Positions 1,895 to 30,894 of a stretch of DNA of 64,000 nt are shown piece by piece. Both the position numbers and the translations under genes were made by a program. The first letter of the stretch is position 1. Every line of letters starts with the position of its first letter. Source of the stretch: Escherichia phage N2; the sequence record ON645936.1, one strand, 5' to 3'. Below the pieces are notes generated by a model that was not told the origin of the DNA, ran no database searches, and was given only the letters and a program-made list of their open reading frames with translations.

Positions 1895-1921
1895 AATCAT
1901 ATAAACCAAAAGGAAAGCGCA

Positions 1922-3205
1922 ATGGCTAAAATCAACGAACTTCTGCGCGAGTCAACCACAACGAATAGCAACTCAATCGGTCGCCCAAATCTCGTTGCTT
2001 TGACTCGCGCTACCACTAAATTAATATATTCCGACATTGTAGCAACACAAAGAACTAATCAACCTGTTGCTGCTTTTTATGGTATCAAATACCTTAACCC
2101 AGACAATGAATTTACATTTAAAACTGGTGCTACTTACGCTGGCGAAGCTGGGTACGTAGACCGAGAACAAATCACAGAATTAACAGAAGAGTCTAAATTA
2201 ACTCTCAATAAAGGCGATTTATTCAAATATAATAATATCGTTTATAAAGTATTAGAAGATACACCATTTGCTGATATTGAAGAAAGCGATTTAGAATTAG
2301 CTCTTCAGATTGCAATTGTTCTTTTAAAGGTTCGTCTATTTTCTGATGCAGCATCAACAAGCAAATTTGAAAGCTCTGATAGCGAAATTGCGGATGCTAG
2401 ATTCCAGATTAATAAATGGCAAACCGCAGTTAAATCTCGTAAACTTAAAACTGGCATTACAGTTGAATTAGCACAAGATTTAGAAGCAAATGGATTCGAT
2501 GCTCCTAATTTCTTGGAAGATTTGCTTGCAACTGAAATGGCGGATGAAATCAATAAAGATATTCTGCAATCTTTGATTACAGTATCAAAACGCTATAAAG
2601 TTACAGGAATTACTGATACTGGATTCATTGATTTGAGTTATGCATCTGCACCTGAAGCTGGTCGTTCATTATACCGAATGGTGTGTGAAATGGTTTCGCA
2701 TATCCAAAAAGAATCAACTTATACTGCAACGTTCTGTGTTGCTTCAGCTCGTGCCGCTGCGATTCTTGCTGCATCAGGTTGGTTAAAACATAAACCAGAA
2801 GATGATAAATATCTTTCACAAAATGCCTATGGGTTCTTAGCTAATGGTTTACCGCTTTATTGCGATACTAACAGCCCATTAGATTATGTAATCGTTGGCG
2901 TAGTAGAAAATATTGGTGAAAAAGAAATTGTCGGATCAATTTTCTATGCTCCGTATACAGAAGGTCTTGACTTAGATGACCCTGAACATGTAGGTGCATT
3001 TAAAGTTGTAGTTGATCCAGAAAGCTTACAACCATCTATCGGTTTATTGGTTAGATATGCTTTATCTGCAAATCCTTACACTGTAGCAAAAGATGAAAAA
3101 GAAGCAAGAATAATTGATGGTGGAGACATGGATAAAATGGCGGGTCGTTCAGATTTGTCTGTTTTATTAGGTGTTAAATTACCAAAAATTATCGTTGATG
3201 AATAA
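1922..3205 (+). CDS. 24: Head vertex protein gp24 (gp23 paralog)
   Basis: 427 aa, T4 gp24 length and position; TATAAATA late promoter 28 nt upstream; shared motifs with gp23 (ELAQDL, FYAPY). Confidence 0.92.
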   Translation: MAKINELLRESTTTNSNSIGRPNLVALTRATTKLIYSDIVATQRTNQPVAAFYGIKYLNPDNEFTFKTGATYAGEAGYVDREQITELTEESKLTLNKGDLFKYNNIVYKVLEDTPFADIEESDLELALQIAIVLLKVRLFSDAASTSKFESSDSEIADARFQINKWQTAVKSRKLKTGITVELAQDLEANGFDAPNFLEDLLATEMADEINKDILQSLITVSKRYKVTGITDTGFIDLSYASAPEAGRSLYRMVCEMVSHIQKESTYTATFCVASARAAAILAASGWLKHKPEDDKYLSQNAYGFLANGLPLYCDTNSPLDYVIVGVVENIGEKEIVGSIFYAPYTEGLDLDDPEHVGAFKVVVDPESLQPSIGLLVRYALSANPYTVAKDEKEARIIDGGDMDKMAGRSDLSVLLGVKLPKIIVDE

Positions 3206-3207
3206 AA

Positions 3208-3235
3208 CAAAGGGACCAAAAGGTCCCTTTTTATT
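3208..3235. terminator. Bidirectional intrinsic terminator between gene 24 (+) and rnlB (-)
   Basis: AAGGGACC-AAAA-GGUCCCUU hairpin flanked by A/T runs on both sides. Confidence 0.65.
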
Positions 3236-4239
3236 TAACTTACCAATTCAATCCAAGCCGGACGAAGTACATCTTGTACCATTTTAACTAATTCCTTTTT
3301 AATCAAAGAAGGATTATCCGCTTGAGTTAGAGTAATACCTTCACGAGAAGTTTCTTCCAAAATATCTTGAACAGTTAGCCCCATCACCTTTCCAAAATCT
3401 TTTGGACCAATTTCGCCAATTTTAGAAATAACATTATTTACTCGGTTCAGTGTAACGTAGCAAGCTAAAATTCCCAGCAATTTATTATCAGCTTCTGACA
3501 ACTCAACTTTAGCTTTAATAGGCTTATCAGACTTTTTCTTTTCGCTAAATTTAGAGTTCTTGCATTTAATAGCGACACGATTGCCATTAGGCATCCAAGA
3601 AGGATAACAAGGTTTCAATACATATCCTTCAGCAGTAAATACTTCGCCTTTTGCTTCGGCATTCCAAACGCATTTATTTGCATCAACTAATCCAGCATGG
3701 TCTACTGTAAAATTATAATCCTGGACGACAGAATCTAAATCATTTGGCAATTTAATAAGTTCTTCAAATTTACCACGACCCAAAAGTGGAGCCATTTTAA
3801 ATTTGAATGTATTACAGAATGATTCCATCATATAATCATCGACATAAGTCACATCACCACTTTCTGTAGTAACAATAATGTCAAATACATAAAAATCTTT
3901 ATCACCATAATCGACATTCTTCTGAATGCCAGGTCCAGCGAATTCGCCGAAGACTTGATAAGATACAACTGCCGAAGTTTCCATAATATCTTGTACTGCT
4001 TTAATGGAATCAGCGTAATTCTTTAGAATAATTTCATACCCAAAGAAATCTTCAGCAGGAAGAATCGGTCCAGTACGTTTAGCACAAGTTGCTTTATCGC
4101 GTTCAATAATCAGTGAGAAATTTGTGCCATGAATCTTTTCACGAGCTACCCATTCGCCGCCAGTCAATCCTAAACTGTAAAGTTTTTCAATGAACTTAGA
4201 ATTGTAATGATTTTCAAGACTGCTATACTTTTTAAACAT
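3235..4239 (-). CDS. rnlB: RNA ligase 2 (Rnl2)
   Basis: 334 aa; [16 protein letters not shown]... and ligase motif KIHGTN (lysine nucleotidyltransferase motif I) as in T4 Rnl2. Confidence 0.92.
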
Positions 4240-12509: not shown

Positions 12510-12987
12510 AGAAATTTCTATTCCTAAAATGGGTCTTAAACATTATAACATTTTAAAAGATGTTAAAGGACCCGATGAAAATTTAAAACTTTTGATCGAT
12601 TCTATTTGTCCAAATTTATCACCGGCAGAAGTTGATTTCGTTTCTATTCATTTATTGGAATTTAATGGAAAGATTAAATCTCGTAAAGAAATAGATGGTT
12701 ATACTTATGACATTAATGATGTTTATGTATGCCAAAGATTGGAATTTCAATACCAAGGAAATACATTTTATTTTAGACCTCCTGGAAAATTTGAACAATT
12801 TTTAACGGTGAGCGATATGTTATCCAAATGCTTGCTTAAGGTCAATGATGAAGTTAAAGAAATTAATTTTCTTGAGATGCCAGCATTCGTTTTAAAATGG
12901 GCAAATGACATTTTTACAACTTTAGCAATTCCTGGCCCTAATGGTCCAATAACCGGAATTGGCAATATTATTGGATTATTTGAATGA
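12454..12987 (+). CDS. 28: Baseplate hub distal subunit gp28
   Basis: 177 aa, overlaps gp27 3' end in another frame as in T4. Confidence 0.8.
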
Positions 12988-14756
12988 AAAAGCCACAAGA
13001 AATGCAAACGATGCGTAGAAAAGTTATTTCAGATAATAAACCAACACAGGAAGCGGCTAAATCCGCTTCTAACACTTTATCTGGACTTAACGATATATCT
13101 ACGAAATTGGATGATGCTCAAGCTGCTTCTGAATTAATTGCTCAAACTGTCGAAGAAAAATCGAATGAAATAATTGGAGCAATTGACAACGTAGAAAGCG
13201 CAGTGAGTGATACTACTGCCGGTTCTGAGTTAATTGCTGAAACTGTCGAAATTGGCAATAATATTAATAAAGAAATCGGTGAATCACTCGGGAGCAAATT
13301 AGATAAATTAACAAGTTTACTAGAACAAAAAATTCAGACAGCTGGAATTCAACAGACGGGAACTAGTTTAGCTACGGTTGAAAGCGCTATTCCTGTTAAA
13401 GTTGTTGAGGATGATACAGCTGAATCTGTGGGTCCTTTATTACCGGCTCCTGAAGCAGTTAATAATGATCCTGATGCTGATTTTTTCCCTACCCCTCAGC
13501 CAGTTGAACCTAAACAAGAATCGCCAGAAGAAAAACAGAAAAAAGACGCATTTAACTTAAAATTATCTCAAGCTTTAGATAAATTAACGAAGACTGTTGA
13601 TTTTGGATTTAAGAAATCTATTTCAATTACTGATAAAATATCAAGCATGCTATTTAAGTATACCGTCAGTGCTGCTATTGAAGCTGCTAAAATGACAGCA
13701 ATGATATTGGCTGTTGTTGTCGGAATAGACCTGTTGATGGTTCATTTCAAATATTGGTCAGATAAATTTTCACAGGCTTGGGATTTGTTTAGTTCAAACT
13801 TTACTAAATTCTCTAGCGAAACCGGAACATGGGGTCCTTTATTACAGAGCATCTTTAGTTCTATTGATGAAATTAAAAAATTCTGGGAAGAGGGAGATTG
13901 GGGTGGTTTGACGGTAGCTATTGTAGAAGGGCTTGGAAAGGTTCTTTATAATTTAGGTGAACTTATTCAGCTTGGAATGGCTAAATTATCTGCGGCAATT
14001 CTTCGAGTTATTCCTGGTATGAAGGATACTGCTGATGAAGTAGAAGGAAGAGCACTAGAAAATTTCCAAAATACTACAAATGCTTCTCTTAGCAAAGAAG
14101 ACCAAGAAAAAGTTGCAAATTATCAATATAAAAGAATGAATGGAGACCTTGGTCCGATAGCAAAAGGGTTAGACAAAATTGCGAACTGGAAAACTCGTGC
14201 ATCTAACTGGATTCGTGGTGTTGATAATAAAGAAGCACTAACGACTGATGAAGAGAGAGCAGAGGAAGAAGAAAAATTAAAGCAACTTTCTCCGGAGGAA
14301 GCTAAAATTGCTTTAATGAAAGCTAATGAAGCTCGTGCTGCTATGAATCGTTTTGATCAATATGCCGATTCAGCTGACATGAGTAAAGATTCAACGGTTA
14401 AATCAGTTGAAGCTGCCTATGAAGACCTTAAAAAACGGATGGATGACCCGGATTTAAATAATTCACCGGCAGTTAAAAAAGAACTTGCTGCTAGATTTTC
14501 TAAAATTGATGCTACTTATCAAGAGCTCAAGAAAAATCAGCCTAATGCCAAACCTGAAACTTCTGCTAAATCGCCAGAAGCAAAACAAGTCCAGGTTATT
14601 GAAAAGAACAAAGCACAGCAAGCTCCTGTTCAACAAGCATCTCCTTCGATCAATAATACTAATAATGTTATTAAGAAAAATACTGTCGTTCATAATATGA
14701 CACCCGTAACGAGCACGACTGCTCCTGGTGTATTTGATGCGACTGGAGTTAATTAA
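12984..14756 (+). CDS. 29: Baseplate hub subunit / tail length determinator gp29
   Basis: 590 aa, T4 gp29 length; extended coiled/helical tape-measure-like composition. Confidence 0.9.
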   Translation: MKKPQEMQTMRRKVISDNKPTQEAAKSASNTLSGLNDISTKLDDAQAASELIAQTVEEKSNEIIGAIDNVESAVSDTTAGSELIAETVEIGNNINKEIGESLGSKLDKLTSLLEQKIQTAGIQQTGTSLATVESAIPVKVVEDDTAESVGPLLPAPEAVNNDPDADFFPTPQPVEPKQESPEEKQKKDAFNLKLSQALDKLTKTVDFGFKKSISITDKISSMLFKYTVSAAIEAAKMTAMILAVVVGIDLLMVHFKYWSDKFSQAWDLFSSNFTKFSSETGTWGPLLQSIFSSIDEIKKFWEEGDWGGLTVAIVEGLGKVLYNLGELIQLGMAKLSAAILRVIPGMKDTADEVEGRALENFQNTTNASLSKEDQEKVANYQYKRMNGDLGPIAKGLDKIANWKTRASNWIRGVDNKEALTTDEERAEEEEKLKQLSPEEAKIALMKANEARAAMNRFDQYADSADMSKDSTVKSVEAAYEDLKKRMDDPDLNNSPAVKKELAARFSKIDATYQELKKNQPNAKPETSAKSPEAKQVQVIEKNKAQQAPVQQASPSINNTNNVIKKNTVVHNMTPVTSTTAPGVFDATGVN

Positions 14757-14764
14757 GGAATAAT

Positions 14765-15859
14765 ATGGCAATTGTTAAAGAAATAACTGCTGATTTAATT
14801 AAAAAGTCCGGTGAAAAAATTTCAGCCGGACAGAGTACTAAATCAGAAGTAGGAACTAAAACATACACTGCCCAGTTTCCAACTGGGCGTGCTAGTGGTA
14901 ATGACACTACAGGGGACTTCCAGGTAACAGATCTATATAAGAATGGATTATTATTTACTGCATACAATATGTCATCTAGGGATTCTGGAAGTCTTAGATC
15001 GATGAGATCTAACTACTCTTCTTCATCTTCGAGTATTTTACGTACGGCCAGAAACACTATCAGTAATACAGTATCAAAACTGTCAAATGGATTAATATCA
15101 GATAATAATTCAGGAACAATAAGTAAAGCCCCTGTCGCAAACATTCTTTTACCAAGATCTAAATCTGATGTTGATACATCATCACATAGATTTAATGATG
15201 TTCAAGAAAGTCTTATCAGCAGAGGCGGAGGTACTGCTACTGGTGTGCTAAGTAATATTGCTTCAACTGCAGTATTTGGGGCACTGGAAAGTATAACGCA
15301 AGGTATAATGGCTGATAATAATGAACAGATTTATACGACAGCCAGAAGTATGTATGGCGGTGCTGAGAATAGAACTAAAGTGTTTACATGGGATTTGACG
15401 CCACGTTCAACAGAAGATTTAATGGCTATTATTAATATCTATCAATATTTTAACTATTTTTCTTATGGTGAAACGGGTAAATCTCAATACGCTGCTGAAA
15501 TAAAGGGGTATTTAGATGATTGGTATCGTTCTACTTTAATTGAACCTTTATCTCCGGAAGACGCAGCTAAAAATAAAACGCTATTTGAGAAAATGACATC
15601 GAGTTTAACTAACGTTCTAGTAGTTTCAAACCCGACAATTTGGATGGTGAAAAACTTTGGCGCAACATCTAAGTTTGATGGAAAAACGGAAATATTTGGC
15701 CCATGCCAAATACAGAGCATCAGATTTGATAAAACACCTAATGGTAACTTTAACGGATTAGCTATTGCTCCAAACCTCCCTAGTACATTTACTCTTGAGA
15801 TTACTATGAGAGAAATTATCACGTTAAACCGTGCTTCTTTATATGCGGGGACTTTTTAA
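14765..15859 (+). CDS. 48: Baseplate tail tube cap gp48
   Basis: 364 aa, T4 gp48 length and position. Confidence 0.9.
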   Translation: MAIVKEITADLIKKSGEKISAGQSTKSEVGTKTYTAQFPTGRASGNDTTGDFQVTDLYKNGLLFTAYNMSSRDSGSLRSMRSNYSSSSSSILRTARNTISNTVSKLSNGLISDNNSGTISKAPVANILLPRSKSDVDTSSHRFNDVQESLISRGGGTATGVLSNIASTAVFGALESITQGIMADNNEQIYTTARSMYGGAENRTKVFTWDLTPRSTEDLMAIINIYQYFNYFSYGETGKSQYAAEIKGYLDDWYRSTLIEPLSPEDAAKNKTLFEKMTSSLTNVLVVSNPTIWMVKNFGATSKFDGKTEIFGPCQIQSIRFDKTPNGNFNGLAIAPNLPSTFTLEITMREIITLNRASLYAGTF

Positions 15860-16824
15860 TGTATTCTTTAGAGGAATTTAATAATCAAGCAATAAACGCA
15901 GATTTCCAACGTAATAATATGTTTAGCTGCGTTTTTGCGACAACTCCATCAACTAAAAGCTCTTCGTTGATAAGTTCAATTAGCAACTTTTCTTATAATA
16001 ACTTGGGTCTAAATTCAGATTGGTTAGGATTGACTCAAGGCGATATTAATCAGGGAATTACAACGCTAATTACTGCTGGCACACAAAAACTGATAAGAAA
16101 ATCAGGGGTTAGTAAATATCTTATTGGTGCCATGAGTCAACGTACAGTTCAAAGTTTATTAGGCTCATTTACAGTTGGTACATATTTAATTGACTTCTTT
16201 AACATGGCATATAACTCATCTGGATTGATGATATACTCCGTAAAAATGCCAGAGAATAGATTATCCTATGAAACTGACTGGAACTATAATTCTCCTAATA
16301 TTCGTATAACTGGGAGAGAATTAGACCCTTTGGTTATTTCATTTAGAATGGATTCAGAGTCGTGTAATTATCGTGCAATGCAAGACTGGGTTAACGCTGT
16401 TCAAGACCCAGTAACTGGACTGCGTGCGTTGCCACAAGATGTCGAGGCAGACATTCAGGTTAATCTTCATGCTCGTAATGGATTACCTCATACTGCAGTG
16501 ATGTTCACCGGATGCATTCCAGTGTCAGTGAGCGCTCCTGAGTTATCATATGATGGAGATAACCAAATAACTACATTTGATGTTACTTTTGCGTATAGAG
16601 TCATGCAGGCTGGAGCAGTTGATAGACAAGCTGCGCTTGAGTGGCTTGAATCTGCTGCTATAAATGGCATTCAAAGCGTTCTCGGAAATAGTGGAGGTGT
16701 TACTGGACTATCTAATTCGCTTTCACGACTTAGTAGATTAGGAGGAACTGCGGGAAGCATTTCAAACATTAATACTATGACGGGAATTGTCAATTCGCAA
16801 AGTAAAATATTAGGAGCAATATAA
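15859..16824 (+). CDS. 54: Baseplate tail tube initiator gp54
   Basis: 321 aa; ATGT/TAATG coupling to gp48; hairpin terminator after stop. Confidence 0.9.
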   Translation: MYSLEEFNNQAINADFQRNNMFSCVFATTPSTKSSSLISSISNFSYNNLGLNSDWLGLTQGDINQGITTLITAGTQKLIRKSGVSKYLIGAMSQRTVQSLLGSFTVGTYLIDFFNMAYNSSGLMIYSVKMPENRLSYETDWNYNSPNIRITGRELDPLVISFRMDSESCNYRAMQDWVNAVQDPVTGLRALPQDVEADIQVNLHARNGLPHTAVMFTGCIPVSVSAPELSYDGDNQITTFDVTFAYRVMQAGAVDRQAALEWLESAAINGIQSVLGNSGGVTGLSNSLSRLSRLGGTAGSISNINTMTGIVNSQSKILGAI

Positions 16825-16825
16825 C

Positions 16826-16852
16826 AATGGGGACCTTTCGGTCCCCATATTT
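16826..16852. terminator. Intrinsic terminator after gene 54 (convergent with alt region)
   Basis: GGGGACC-UUUC-GGUCCCC hairpin followed by UAUUUUUAUUU. Confidence 0.7.
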
Positions 16853-17143
16853 TTATTTACGGAATGAAATAAAAGCAGCAACTGAAGCAACTAAACTGTC
16901 TTCAATATAAACTTCAATTTTTACCGGAGCTTCTGACTCAAATTTACCTGTTACTACACCTTGGAAAATGCTTTCAGTCTGCTCTGGCTTTGAAAAATTT
17001 TCAGAAGGAAAAATTCCGAACTTTTTATCTGTTCCAAAAATTTTGATAAATTCATCATAAACTGCTTCATTAAAAGCATTATCAGCAGGAATAACGCCTT
17101 CAACTACAAGTTCTTGACCTAAAAAGCGCAAAGAAGATTTCAT
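16853..17143 (-). CDS. Hypothetical protein (alt-upstream region)
   Basis: 96-aa ORF with GAGGA RBS directly downstream of an early promoter unit. Confidence 0.5.
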   Translation of the reverse strand: MKSSLRFLGQELVVEGVIPADNAFNEAVYDEFIKIFGTDKKFGIFPSENFSKPEQTESIFQGVVTGKFESEAPVKIEVYIEDSLVASVAAFISFRK

Positions 17144-17169
17144 TTTATGTTCCTCATGTTATGTCAGTA

Positions 17170-17210
17170 AATCTACTATAACACAACACGAGGGACTTGT
17201 AAACTACATT
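17170..17210 (-). promoter_or_regulatory. T4-type early promoter (GTTTAC-N18-TATAGT), minus strand
   Basis: rc reads GTTTACAAGTCCCTCGTGTTGTGTTATAGT; overlaps 3' end of Alt-paralog ORF; near-duplicate at ~30857-30897. Confidence 0.6.
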
Positions 17211-17562
17211 TTGAACTTTTTAGTACGCGTAATAGGCATGCGTCGATTTTATACTGTTTCATTGTTTGAAGAGCAGTATCAAAAACCGCATTAATGACAC
17301 CAATTGGATTTCCACCCAAGTTTTTAAGTTTAACTAATGATAGTTTCTCATTAACACCTATCATTACGATATGCATCATTTTATCGCCTGGCTTAACGTT
17401 TTTATTTGTATCACCGCCAGAGGTGTATGTACAAAATCTAAATCCAGGAAGCACGCTTTCTTCGCCGGCTTGAATAGCAAAAATTTGAGGTATTTTATGC
17501 TTAGGATTTAAGTTAACAACCGGCGCCGAAGCGCCGTCAAATAATTCTGTAATAAGTTCCAT
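17176..17562 (-). CDS. Alt N-terminal-domain paralog (putative packaged internal protein)
   Basis: 128 aa; about 60 percent identical to first ~120 aa of adjacent Alt (MELITELFD...NLNPK.KIPQIF...CTYTSGGDTN...GDKMMHIV...QYKIDAC). Confidence 0.6.
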   Translation of the reverse strand: MELITELFDGASAPVVNLNPKHKIPQIFAIQAGEESVLPGFRFCTYTSGGDTNKNVKPGDKMMHIVMIGVNEKLSLVKLKNLGGNPIGVINAVFDTALQTMKQYKIDACLLRVLKSSKCSLQVPRVVL

Positions 17563-17565
17563 GAT

Positions 17566-19662
17566 TTATCCTTGAACGAACTTGTAAGGCATGTTTGTAA
17601 TATCTATGCAAGACGCAATAATTCCGAGAGATGATTCTGCTTTCTGTTTAACATTTGATGAAACAAATGATGCAAAGTCAACTCTGTCTTCTATTTCAAT
17701 ATCACCTGTCATTGCAACTACTTCGCCGGTTTCCATTAGACGGTCACCGTCATAAATTACTGATTCGGTGAGTTCTTCCGTAGTCATAACTTCGGCTTGA
17801 ATGAGTTTTGTATTATTAAATGTTATTCCGTCATTATTAGAAGCATCAGTTATTTTGTTAACTTTGACCATCAATCCGCGCGGTAGAATAACTTCAGCTT
17901 CTGATGCTATTCCGAGACTTCCTGGATATACAACATTAACTTTATGAGCTCCATCAATTGCCCATCCTATTTGAACTTTAACATATTCAGGATTTTCTTT
18001 ATACGCTCTTATTTCGCTTGGATTAATAGTTATTCCTTCTTCATTTTTATCAACCGTTAATTCATTGCGAGCTTCTGGTTCTAAAAGACCGATACCAGCA
18101 TGTGTAATTCCAAAACGTCCAAAAATGATAGGAGTTAAAGAAGTAGATACAAAATTTCTGAAATAGAACACTTTATTTTTAACTAGTGCTTCGTATATAG
18201 GAGCAGTCATACTTTGAGCACGATAAACTGTAATGCCTTCTGGTATACGGTCACCATTTTCAAAGGCTGAATCTAAATTATTTATCGCAGATTCAATTTC
18301 TTTTTCACTCATTACCTCATATCGTTCTGGATTGTAGCGGCCTAAAAGAAGATTATTGATGTCAGTATATCCTGCTCCACAATACTCTCTAATGCCGCGC
18401 TTTTGTGATGGAGTATATTTAGAACCATCACGGGCAATAGTAATATCAATCATTGGACCTGCACCAACTCCAGAAAAACTATAAATCATTCGTTTGAGGA
18501 ATACAGTTTTTGCTGCGTTCCAGGAATTTTTAGTTATTTCTTCCCAGACTTCATCTGACTGTCCTTTGCGGGTTTTATTATGTGTATCAAGCCAATTATC
18601 TTTATATTCTTCAAAGAATTGATTAACAGCTGCTGCGTATTTCTCTAAACATTTTATTGAAGTAGTTGGTTCATTTTTGATCGCATTAAGAATTACATCT
18701 TTAATTTTTTCAGAAACCTCATCAACCTCACTTTTTGAAACGAATTTATAGTAATGGCGAAGTTCATTTGTAGTTCCTTCGGCAATAATTTTTGCTGCCT
18801 TAGTTTTAGAAGCTAATGAATTAATTCCAAGCTTCATTTCTTCTGCTTCGGGAATTAAAGGAGCGGTAGCAGGTTTATTAAAATTGGCTGCGGTAGATTC
18901 ATACTTCTGGAATAATTCGCTTTCAAATCTAGAAGATTCTAATGATTGACTTTGTGCAATTGCTCTACGGGAAATTTTAACTTTAACGATTACAGCTTGG
19001 TCAGAACGTTTATCATTTTCTTGCGCAATAGATGCTGCAATTGCCTCATTTTTAGTTACTTGAGCTCCAGTATCTTTGTTGATATAAACATCGCCGACCT
19101 TCGATTCAACTTTAGTAAAGAGCTCGGTACTAATTTCCGGAACTCCTGGAATGTCTTCTAATGATACATTTTTGCGATGTATAAGAATATATGCATACTT
19201 TTTATCGTAATCCCAGATTTCCTTAAGAAGGACGTATCTGCCACCTGAACGACTACGGATAAGTCTATCAGCAATAACTTGAATTTGTCGAGCTTGACCA
19301 GCAGTTTTAGACTTAAGAATACGAAGCATACAAGCATCAATTTTATACTGGCGCATCGTCTGCATTGCAACAGTAAAAACTGAATTGATATAATTAATTG
19401 GGCTTGGACCGAGACCTTTTAATTTAGCAATTGAACCTTTAGCAGTTAATGTAAAAGGAACAATATGCATCATTTTATCGCCCATCTTTAAATCACGGTT
19501 AGTATCACCTCCAGATGTATAGGTACATAAACGAAAGCCCGGTTGTTCAATTGCATCATCAACATGAACTGAAAAAATTTGTGGTATTTTCTTCTTTGGA
19601 TTTAAGTTTGTAATCGGAAGAGTAGTATCTTCGTCAAATAATTCTGTAATAAGTTCCATCAT
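17566..19662 (-). CDS. alt: ADP-ribosyltransferase Alt
   Basis: 698 aa at T4 alt position; T4 Alt-like N-terminus; C-terminal region with Arg/STS/ExE-type ART elements (YRAQ, STSLT, SEAEV). Confidence 0.88.
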   Translation of the reverse strand: MMELITELFDEDTTLPITNLNPKKKIPQIFSVHVDDAIEQPGFRLCTYTSGGDTNRDLKMGDKMMHIVPFTLTAKGSIAKLKGLGPSPINYINSVFTVAMQTMRQYKIDACMLRILKSKTAGQARQIQVIADRLIRSRSGGRYVLLKEIWDYDKKYAYILIHRKNVSLEDIPGVPEISTELFTKVESKVGDVYINKDTGAQVTKNEAIAASIAQENDKRSDQAVIVKVKISRRAIAQSQSLESSRFESELFQKYESTAANFNKPATAPLIPEAEEMKLGINSLASKTKAAKIIAEGTTNELRHYYKFVSKSEVDEVSEKIKDVILNAIKNEPTTSIKCLEKYAAAVNQFFEEYKDNWLDTHNKTRKGQSDEVWEEITKNSWNAAKTVFLKRMIYSFSGVGAGPMIDITIARDGSKYTPSQKRGIREYCGAGYTDINNLLLGRYNPERYEVMSEKEIESAINNLDSAFENGDRIPEGITVYRAQSMTAPIYEALVKNKVFYFRNFVSTSLTPIIFGRFGITHAGIGLLEPEARNELTVDKNEEGITINPSEIRAYKENPEYVKVQIGWAIDGAHKVNVVYPGSLGIASEAEVILPRGLMVKVNKITDASNNDGITFNNTKLIQAEVMTTEELTESVIYDGDRLMETGEVVAMTGDIEIEDRVDFASFVSSNVKQKAESSLGIIASCIDITNMPYKFVQG

Positions 19663-19711
19663 ATCCTCTCTAGTGTTTATTCTATTTATAAAATTAAAGG
19701 CCTGAAGGCCT

Positions 19712-21621: not shown

Positions 21622-22485
21622 TTAGAATGCTCCTTGGAAAATATTATCACCACTAGTAAATCTATTAAAATACCCTGCATCACCAGGCTTAGTATAACTC
21701 CACGTATGGAATGGATTCATATGATACGGGTGTGTATAATATGGATTATATGGATGTGTATAATATGGATTATACGGATTAAATCCAGGAGTTCTCCAGG
21801 TAGTGTTCCAGCGAAAAGAATCGTTTTTAATCATCTTTTCAATTACATCTTTTATAGCTTTTTCACTATCAAAACTTTCTTTATTTTCCTTTGGTGAAAA
21901 AAGCTTATTCTCTACATCGTTCCATGTATAAACTCGCTGAGCAGTTTTTGGAATACTGTCACGTTCCCCTCGAGCCATCCAATAAACTGGAACATTTAAT
22001 ATTTCACTCGCATGATCGCAGTGGTGAGCGAGATCGTCAATATAACAAATTACGTTATATTTCTCTTTTGCCTTTTTGAACAACTCTTCTTTTGAAGAAT
22101 CATGGCCACACATCAGTACTTCTGAGAAGGCACCAGGAAAAAGAGCATTCAAATTAAATTGACGATTCAGCAGAGCGTCAATAGAATCACCCAGTGCTGT
22201 AACAGCTACAAAATTATAATCTTCTTTTAATTTGTTAATTACACACAGAGCATCTTTATATGGAGACAAGTAACGAATAAAATCCGAACGATTGTATTTT
22301 TCAATTAACTTGACGCCAAGTTCTTCATCACAATTAAAAAGTTTACCAGGAGAAATAAATTTTTCATCTTGGATCATTTTTAAAATATGTTCCAACGGAA
22401 GATTATATTTCTGAGCAAAATAAGGAAGGCCTGATTGCCAGCTTAAGCATACTCCATCAATATCAGTTAAAATAGTAGGCTTCAT
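21622..22485 (-). CDS. HAD-superfamily phosphatase-like protein with C-terminal Pro/Tyr repeats
   Basis: 287 aa; N-terminal ILTDIDGV (DxDx[T/V] HAD motif I); tandem NPYYTHPY repeats near C-terminus. Confidence 0.65.
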   Translation of the reverse strand: MKPTILTDIDGVCLSWQSGLPYFAQKYNLPLEHILKMIQDEKFISPGKLFNCDEELGVKLIEKYNRSDFIRYLSPYKDALCVINKLKEDYNFVAVTALGDSIDALLNRQFNLNALFPGAFSEVLMCGHDSSKEELFKKAKEKYNVICYIDDLAHHCDHASEILNVPVYWMARGERDSIPKTAQRVYTWNDVENKLFSPKENKESFDSEKAIKDVIEKMIKNDSFRWNTTWRTPGFNPYNPYYTHPYNPYYTHPYHMNPFHTWSYTKPGDAGYFNRFTSGDNIFQGAF

Positions 22486-30833: not shown

Positions 30834-30856
30834 AAAGTCCTCATGTTATGTCAGTA

Positions 30857-30894
30857 AAATTACTATAACACAACACGAGGGACTTGTAAACAGC

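Follow-up and report, generated by a model that had tools for sequence, protein, structure and literature searches.

A 128-residue reading frame next to alt in Escherichia phage N2 is very likely a deletion remnant of a second, full-length Alt paralog

In phage T4, Alt (gpAlt) is a mono-ADP-ribosyltransferase that is packaged in about 40 copies, reportedly loses a small N-terminal peptide to gp21, and is injected into the host (PMC9958956). Two small genes, alt.-1 (NP_049810, 61 aa) and alt.-2 (NP_049809, 67 aa), lie between alt and alt.-3 in the T4 record, where they are together described as “an old duplication of the first part of alt” that later acquired a stop and a new start. Nolan and colleagues (2006) list alt.-1 and alt.-2 among the paralogous duplications of alt, and a full-length alt duplicate is also present in the distant T4-like phage 44RR (ORF187c; PMC1524935). 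The gene that follows, alt.-3, is a real but dispensable T4 gene, C-terminal extension mutants of which escape the CmdTAC defence system (PMC11618068).

Here we describe the corresponding locus in a 64,000-nucleotide stretch of the Escherichia phage N2 sequence, hereafter the window. The window is that of a T4-like phage of the genus Tequatrovirus, with genes 29, 48, and 54 on the plus strand at 12984-16824. Downstream of these genes, on the minus strand, alt is followed by an open reading frame (ORF) of 128 codons. We compare this ORF with Alt, with T4 alt.-1 and alt.-2, and with the larger genes found at the same place in related phages.

The reading frame beside alt and its T4 counterpart

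The features of the locus are as follows.

19683-19690, minus strand: late-promoter motif TATAAATA, which precedes the start of alt by about 20 nt; a putative function, assigned from the motif only
17566-19662, minus strand: alt, 698 aa, encoding the packaged ADP-ribosyltransferase; parent of the paralog family
17569-17573, minus strand: Shine-Dalgarno sequence AAGGA of the 128-aa ORF, within the last alt codons and 6 nt before the ATG
17176-17562, minus strand: 128-aa ORF with an ATG start; codons 1-116 are the 5′ end of the second Alt paralog
codons 117-128 of that ORF, minus strand: out-of-frame read-through tail, SKCSLQVPRVVL
16853-17143, minus strand: alt.-3 homolog, 96 aa, DUF5498 (PF17602, E = 1.4e-64), served by the embedded promoter

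Transcription on the minus strand thus meets alt, the 128-aa ORF, and the 96-aa ORF in that order. The 128-aa ORF starts 3 nt past the alt stop codon, and its AAGGA site also serves the full-length paralog in phage Ac3, where it is annotated as a ribosome-binding site. Since a late-promoter motif lies upstream of alt and our scan of the interval from alt to alt.-3 returned no terminator on the minus strand, the 128-aa ORF is probably co-transcribed with alt. The motif itself agrees with the late synthesis of packaged Alt. Two plus-strand ORFs in this region (17294-17473 and 17371-17511) were set aside because they are short and antisense to a conserved minus-strand frame, and a plus-strand terminator-like site at 17225-17243 was taken as a chance match because it is antisense to the direction of transcription. 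Of additional note, a 9-bp GC-rich hairpin, ATGGGGACC…GGTCCCCAT, lies at 16827-16848, where gene 54 and alt.-3 converge; either strand of it scores as a terminator, and the records of phages e11/2, G8, Ac3, and Lutter have a terminator annotated there.

An earlier sequence-only reading had described the ORF as adjoining alt, as sharing about 60% identity with the first ~120 residues of Alt, and as lacking the catalytic portion; the span it gave, 17151-17565, comprises the ORF at 17176-17562 together with the downstream promoter and leader. The pairwise alignment that it had called for bears out these points. By BLASTP, the 128-aa ORF and Alt share 73 identities over 117 positions (62%) with one gap (E = 3e-49), and the aligned span, residues 1-116 of the ORF against residues 2-118 of Alt, is not low-complexity and lies far past chance. 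The N-terminus MELITELF is that of Alt, residue for residue. Local Pfam and NCBIfam searches returned zero matches of any kind to the 128-aa ORF, the ADP-ribosyltransferase domain included; in Alt, PF03496 matches residues 379-628. The catalytic Arg, Ser-Thr-Ser, and Glu-x-Glu motifs fall within the deleted part described below and so lie outside the ORF. A precomputed annotation of PF26846 (“Tevenvirinae_ADPRT”) exists for both the 128-aa product and Alt. In our alignment, only residues ~1-116 of a conserved block of ~238 residues are present in the ORF.

The ORF corresponds to alt.-1 and alt.-2 of T4. PHROG 23015, the Alt.-1 family, matches aa 1-56 (E = 1.7e-41), and PHROG 15247, the Alt.-2 family, matches aa 62-128 (E = 5.7e-49); as in T4, the ORF lies between alt and alt.-3 on the early strand. 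DNA identity to T4 alt.-1/alt.-2 is ~97%, and both phages share the same out-of-frame tail and the same stop inside the alt.-3 promoter. The window and T4 align without a difference over the stretch that opens with GTACTAAAAAGTTCAAAATGTAG and closes with the TAG in TATAGT, and the junction and tail are common, base for base, to the window, T4, SYGD1, and F26. The two phages differ at codon 54: T4 has lost one A from an A-run, which splits its frame in two, whereas the window has AAATAAAAAC (17403) where T4 has AAATAAAAC and retains a single 128-aa ORF. Phage F26 has also lost one A there and additionally carries GAA → TAA at codon 6. The absence from the window of the internal frameshift is an allelic state of the same locus, and SYGD1 carries the unsplit ORF too, annotated as “ADP-ribosyltransferase exoenzyme.” A check of synteny in T4, likewise suggested by the sequence-only reading, returned the same locus with the same junction under the names alt.-1 and alt.-2. 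Judged by these comparisons, the feature is the one already known as T4 alt.-1/alt.-2, of which the window carries the rarer, unsplit allele. The relic itself matters little, having been described in the T4 record and by Nolan and colleagues; what can be corrected is how it is thought to have arisen.

The full-length paralog in relatives and the deletion junction

We searched window positions 16800-19700 by megablast against 50,697 phage records, of which 537 matched. In most of these 537, the match covers 4.6 kb in two pieces, as against 2.9 kb here, and two “Alt-like ADP-ribosyltransferase” genes are annotated. The order of the locus in phage PP01 is alt (697 aa), the 685-aa gene PP01_203, and alt.-3, and the same full-length paralog, 685 aa long, is found in T2, PP01, wV7, HP3, Kha5h, Ac3, and PYPS2T (e.g., BBC14538 and YP_010073850; RB32ORF194c type). 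At least 80% of the full-length gene is held by 400 of 497 matching records, T2 included, or ~80% of sequenced Tequatrovirus, and T4-type records hold only its first 348 nt. PP01_203 is 42% identical to the Alt of the window over its whole length (E = 7e-164) and bears PF03496 (E = 2.5e-20); the motifs LYRG, FVSTS, and EAEVILP are present in all 7 intact copies examined. Across the whole gene, these 7 copies vary at 170 synonymous and 31 non-synonymous sites (pN/pS 0.05). The intact paralog is, on this pattern of substitution, under strong purifying selection, as would be expected of a working gene. Our literature search found no published function for the 685-aa second Alt paralog.

The intact paralogs resemble the 128-aa ORF in their first 116 residues, in which a single residue differs (F111L), and they share its ribosome-binding site, position, and downstream promoter. 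In contrast, they continue for 569 more codons, including the ADP-ribosyltransferase domain, which the window does not have, and the tail SSKCSLQVPRVVL separates the 128-aa product from the intact paralog. T4, which serves as the model for ADP-ribosylation by viruses, is therefore a naturally occurring knockout for a fourth enzyme of the ADP-ribosyltransferase type. A further case is phage sutha (PV245934.1), in which positions 21925-22052 match only the last 128 nt of the second paralog although the record annotates a pair of Alt-like genes. The locus may thus exist in a third form, with either a different paralog allele or another rearrangement.

The point at which the window departs from the intact genes can be placed precisely, and the relevant features are given below.

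PP01 piece 1905-3962 and T2 piece 401-2458: loci of the full-length paralog, absent from the window at 17215-17223
17215-17223, minus strand: deletion junction, with one surviving copy of the 9-bp direct repeat CTAAAAAGT
17204-17214, minus strand: orphaned last codons and TAG (17204-17206) of the ancestral paralog, …TTC AAA ATG TAG, from the three-way alignment

Aligned with PP01, the window shows a clean 1,690-bp gap, and the two flanking alignments overlap by 9 nt at window 17215-17223. In intact genes, two copies of CTAAAAAGT flank the missing 1,690 bp, one at codons 114-116 and the other 6 codons before the stop. The repeat is a perfect 9-mer in 5 of 7 intact carriers (T2, Ac3, wV7, PYPS2T, and HP3) and matches at 8 of 9 positions in PP01 and Kha5h. 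A three-way alignment of the window with both sides of PP01 places the crossover within CTAAAGAGT / CTAAAAAGT. Upstream of the junction, the window tracks the 5′ end of PP01_203 at 97.8% DNA identity; the remnant is only 68-69% identical to the alt gene (69% to the alt of PP01), and it therefore derives from a paralog that had already diverged. Downstream of the junction, the window tracks the last 20 nt of PP01_203 and then the intergenic promoter. A length of 1,690 bp is not divisible by three, so the reading frame shifts across the junction: what was once …AAG TTC AAA ATG TAG is now read …AGT TCA AAA TGT AGT…. The old TAG (17206-17204) is bypassed because of this frame change, and 12 new codons then lead to a TAG in a −10 box.

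The conserved block between Alt and the paralog extends to ~residue 238, and the cut falls in its middle, so that it does not coincide with an evident domain boundary. The sequence-only reading had taken the ORF for a duplicated packaging or targeting module; what the ORF holds is instead the first 116 codons of a whole paralog, cut in mid-block. Its alternative description, a remnant of an alt duplication, holds as far as the word remnant goes, with the difference that a whole 685-aa paralog, not a partial copy, was cut by a 1,690-bp out-of-frame deletion.

In our view, the 128-aa ORF is very probably a decaying deletion remnant of a second full-length alt gene, in effect a pseudogene that is still open here. 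We propose the following course of events. In an ancestor, as in T2, PP01, and most Tequatroviruses today, the interval from gene 30/alt.1 to alt.-3 would have contained two complete alt paralogs in tandem. Recombination between the 9-bp repeats, or slippage during replication, would then have removed 1,690 bp of the downstream paralog, leaving its ribosome-binding site, start codon, and 116 N-terminal codons fused out of frame to its last codons. Translation would skip the old TAG and proceed for 12 codons to a chance TAG in the −10 box of the alt.-3 early promoter, and the product, if made, would have no catalytic domain and about half of the conserved N-terminal region. Such a frame would no longer be maintained by selection: relatives with the same junction have broken it repeatedly, and the T4 alt.-1/alt.-2 split is one of these breaks. 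A deletion, not an insertion, is indicated because the missing segment is genuine Alt-type coding sequence, as its identity to Alt, PF03496 match, and motifs attest. Given the identity of the remnant to the paralog, the orphaned 3′ codons, and the working-gene pattern of the intact copies, duplication of the whole gene followed by an internal deletion is the only reasonable history. The duplication is old, and the deletion took place within the genus.

The promoter cassette at the end of the reading frame

The 3′ end of the 128-aa ORF overlaps the signals of alt.-3, which are listed here with their second copy.

17175-17204, minus strand: early-type promoter of alt.-3, with −35 GTTTAC at 17199-17204 and TG-extended −10 TATAGT at 17175-17180
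17151-17204, minus strand: 54-nt promoter-leader-SD cassette (GTTTAC…GAGGA), from direct comparison
30838-30891, minus strand: second cassette copy upstream of alc, identical at 52 of 54 positions, 13.7 kb away
17149-17196, minus strand: predicted hairpin in the read-through RNA, which pairs the promoter spacer and −10 region with the alt.-3 SD GAGGA (17151-17155)

The sigma-70-type match that scores best within 16800-17700 (10 of 12 positions) lies on the minus strand at 17203-17175 and reads TTTACA-17 nt-TATAGT, the TG being extended. The TAG stop of the 128-aa ORF (17178-17176) sits within the −10 hexamer. An equivalent promoter is annotated at the matching spot in phage Lutter, and each of the 7 intact carriers that we examined keeps the alt.-3 promoter after its full-length paralog. 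That the ORF runs into the promoter is a by-product of the frameshift at the junction and not a designed arrangement. That the last codons of the ORF overlap an early promoter duplicated upstream of alc had been noticed from the sequence, and this is confirmed by an exact 31-nt copy: the window contains the 31-mer GTTTACAAGTCCCTCGTGTTGTGTTATAGTA at two places only, 17174-17204 and 30861-30891, the latter between the RNA ligase gene and alc, against 0 matches in 100 shuffles. Many relatives, too, show two places that match a query including the 54-nt cassette.

For read-through RNA from 17215 to 17130, the predicted hairpin has an energy of −23 kcal/mol (z = −4.4), a stability that 0 of 200 shuffled sequences reached. 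The alt.-3 ribosome-binding site is in the 3′ arm of the predicted hairpin, and the alc copy of the cassette has the same hairpin arms by inspection. According to this fold, transcripts from the embedded promoter would start inside the hairpin, leaving the alt.-3 ribosome-binding site free.

Decay of the frame, rival readings, and comparison with known systems

A 261-nt query spanning the junction is matched in one piece by 90 of 499 records. As a sample for lesions, we used 17 junction carriers, namely the window and 16 fetched from the list of ~90 ranked by similarity to the window; all 16 align across the junction in one piece. The states of the ORF are as follows, the three lesion categories overlapping.

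14 of 17 carriers: 1-bp deletion in the A-run at codon 54
8 of 17 carriers: nonsense GAA → TAA at codon 6
1 of 17 carriers (PD112): second 1-bp deletion
2 of 17 carriers (window and SYGD1): ORF open

The ORF is thus broken by a frameshift and/or a nonsense codon in 15 of the 17, and the two main lesions occur both apart (in T4, the 1-bp deletion only; in SG1, the nonsense codon only) and combined. Since searches for homologous proteins gave 3 and 6 proteins, we took prevalence instead from exact-sequence look-ups in an assembly collection of 15 billion proteins. The exact 128-aa protein was on only 3 contigs, the exact Alt.-2 of T4 on 178, and the 92-aa SG1-type form on ~30.

The substitutions tell of constraint in a similar way. 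At codons 1-115, the 7 intact paralogs show 27 synonymous changes and 1 non-synonymous change; the changes found only in remnants are 7 synonymous and 11 non-synonymous, with the nonsense codon counted among the latter, and the remnants have in addition suffered two independent 1-bp deletions. Counted in a small sample, with sites treated as independent and phylogeny and recombination ignored, the ratio differs between remnant and intact genes (Fisher p = 2.3e-5), and that of the remnant shows no difference from the neutral expectation of 78% non-synonymous changes (p = 0.09). On these counts, the substitutions of the remnant look unconstrained, pointing in the same direction as the disabling lesions. 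From the relatives of this phage, we infer that the frame has no function here either.

The number of deletion events could be one or more, as identical junctions could arise repeatedly at the same microhomology. The locus is a mosaic. At 698 aa, the alt gene of the window belongs to the long allele type seen in PP01 and T2, and that of T4 is a 682-aa allele; since the T4-type remnant adjoins both alt allele types in different phages, recombination has shuffled alleles and remnants. Over 20 kb, records in the phage collection reach at most ~97% identity to the window.

The names given to these fragments in databases also deserve mention. Products of 61, 67, 92, and 128 aa are often called “ADP-ribosyltransferase” or “RNA polymerase-ADP-ribosyltransferase Alt” in GenBank with no catalytic domain in them, examples being SYGD1_134, ELT1_217, SG1 ASZ76109, and HMD-9 XRL28041/2; many records thus carry a label that the remnant does not justify. 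The Kha5h record calls its intact gene an “apparent insertion in alt.-2,” which likely reverses the direction of change. The usual wording can be corrected accordingly: T4 appears to have lost most of a complete second ADP-ribosyltransferase gene, which is kept in about four-fifths of its sequenced relatives.

Could the open frame nevertheless encode a functional small protein? With its strong ribosome-binding site and a probable place on the late alt transcript, the ORF of the window may well be translated. Prohead proteases cleave according to the rule (L/I)-x-E, and the shared N-terminus, MELITE↓LF, fits this rule. From the ribosome-binding site, the predicted co-transcription with alt from the late-promoter motif with no terminator between them, and the N-terminus identical to that of Alt, the product could be made and might even enter heads. 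One reading accordingly holds that the open 128-aa product is made late with Alt, enters the prohead core through the shared N-terminal propeptide or region, and is then injected or competes for packaging. We regard this as very improbable. The frame is broken in 15 of 17 carriers, and in 8 of them the stop at codon 6 takes away the residue behind which the protease would cut. In addition, the substitutions look unconstrained, the truncation falls inside a block conserved to ~residue 238 and not at a boundary, and the 12 residues of the tail stem by accident from promoter sequence. The sequence-only reading had envisaged a second injected protein or a decoy, and both are disfavoured on the same grounds of lesions and substitutions. 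It is likewise doubtful in the extreme that, in the phages with an open frame (the window, SYGD1, and a few metagenomic contigs), the product, made from the late alt transcript and taken into the prohead core with the propeptide of Alt, is injected as a small passenger or, by competing with Alt, reduces its copy number; if so, nature would have carried out the experiment that shows how little of Alt is needed for capsid targeting. Our literature search returned neither expression or proteomic data on Alt.-1 or Alt.-2, nor the actual cleavage site of Alt or the part of it that directs packaging, PMC9958956 giving only “small N-terminal peptides.” An AlphaFold2 model of Alt residues 1-250 from a 6-sequence alignment had a mean pLDDT of 54.9, too poor for placing domain boundaries, and a PDB sequence search with Alt gave weak matches to the binary-toxin catalytic domain only and none for the N-terminal region.

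A different possibility is that the frame is kept open for translational coupling, in that ribosomes reading the remnant to its stop at 17176 would melt the 5′ arm of the hairpin and free the alt.-3 ribosome-binding site. The hairpin is predicted to be strong and to pair the alt.-3 SD, the stop codon of the remnant sits within its 5′ arm, and the alt.-2 frame, ending at the same stop, is open in most broken alleles, the exceptions being PD112 and slur03/VEc20 (internal stop). Such a role is, however, purely inferential and seems very unlikely to us: in phages with the intact paralog, the stop is upstream of the hairpin and yet alt.-3 is still conserved; the own promoter of alt.-3 starts transcripts inside the hairpin, so that coupling would be unnecessary; and in PD112, a second frameshift returns the downstream reading to the ancestral paralog frame, so that translation would stop at the old TAG (17204-17206) before it reached the hairpin. 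The remaining alternative concerns origin. It holds that only the first ~350 bp of alt were copied in tandem and that the 685-aa genes arose later by insertion, and both the wording of the T4 record (“first part of alt”) and the insertion note of Kha5h would favour it. We find it scarcely credible, since the 1,690-bp “insert” is in frame, homologous to alt throughout, and endowed with its own ADP-ribosyltransferase domain, and since the window retains the last codons and stop of the paralog, out of frame, downstream of the junction. Moreover, the junction coincides with the 9-bp direct repeat of which intact genes carry two copies, the remnant is far closer to the 5′ end of the paralog (97.8%) than to alt (69%), and full-length duplicates also occur in distant T4-like phages (44RR ORF187c; PMC1524935). 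A partial duplication with later insertion is thus contradicted by the anatomy of the junction, and a foreign origin of the 3′ part is excluded by its homology to alt. Internal deletion from a whole second paralog remains the reading that we prefer.

Seen as a deletion remnant, the ORF can be set against the systems to which it is closest. To T4 gpAlt, which is packaged and injected, it shows its 62% identity over the first 117 residues, MELITE included; it differs in having no catalytic domain and only about half of the conserved N-terminal region. For several T4 genes (e, soc, and 49), only the transcript from the nearer promoter is translated, and the arrangement at alt.-3, in which the embedded promoter would yield a transcript with a free ribosome-binding site, resembles theirs. 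The 54-nt cassette recalls the PeSL cassettes of T4-like phages (Arbiol et al. 2010, PMC2839356; Comeau et al. 2014, PMC4122927), which are likewise short, repeated, intergenic units of an early promoter and a stem-loop; we liken the two by architecture, not by consensus sequence, and the window holds two copies in 64 kb. Although the cassette is repeated, the deletion that formed the remnant used the repeat CTAAAAAGT and not the cassette. The present cassette also differs from PeSL in that its promoter lies inside the predicted hairpin, whose 3′ arm bears the ribosome-binding site of the next gene.
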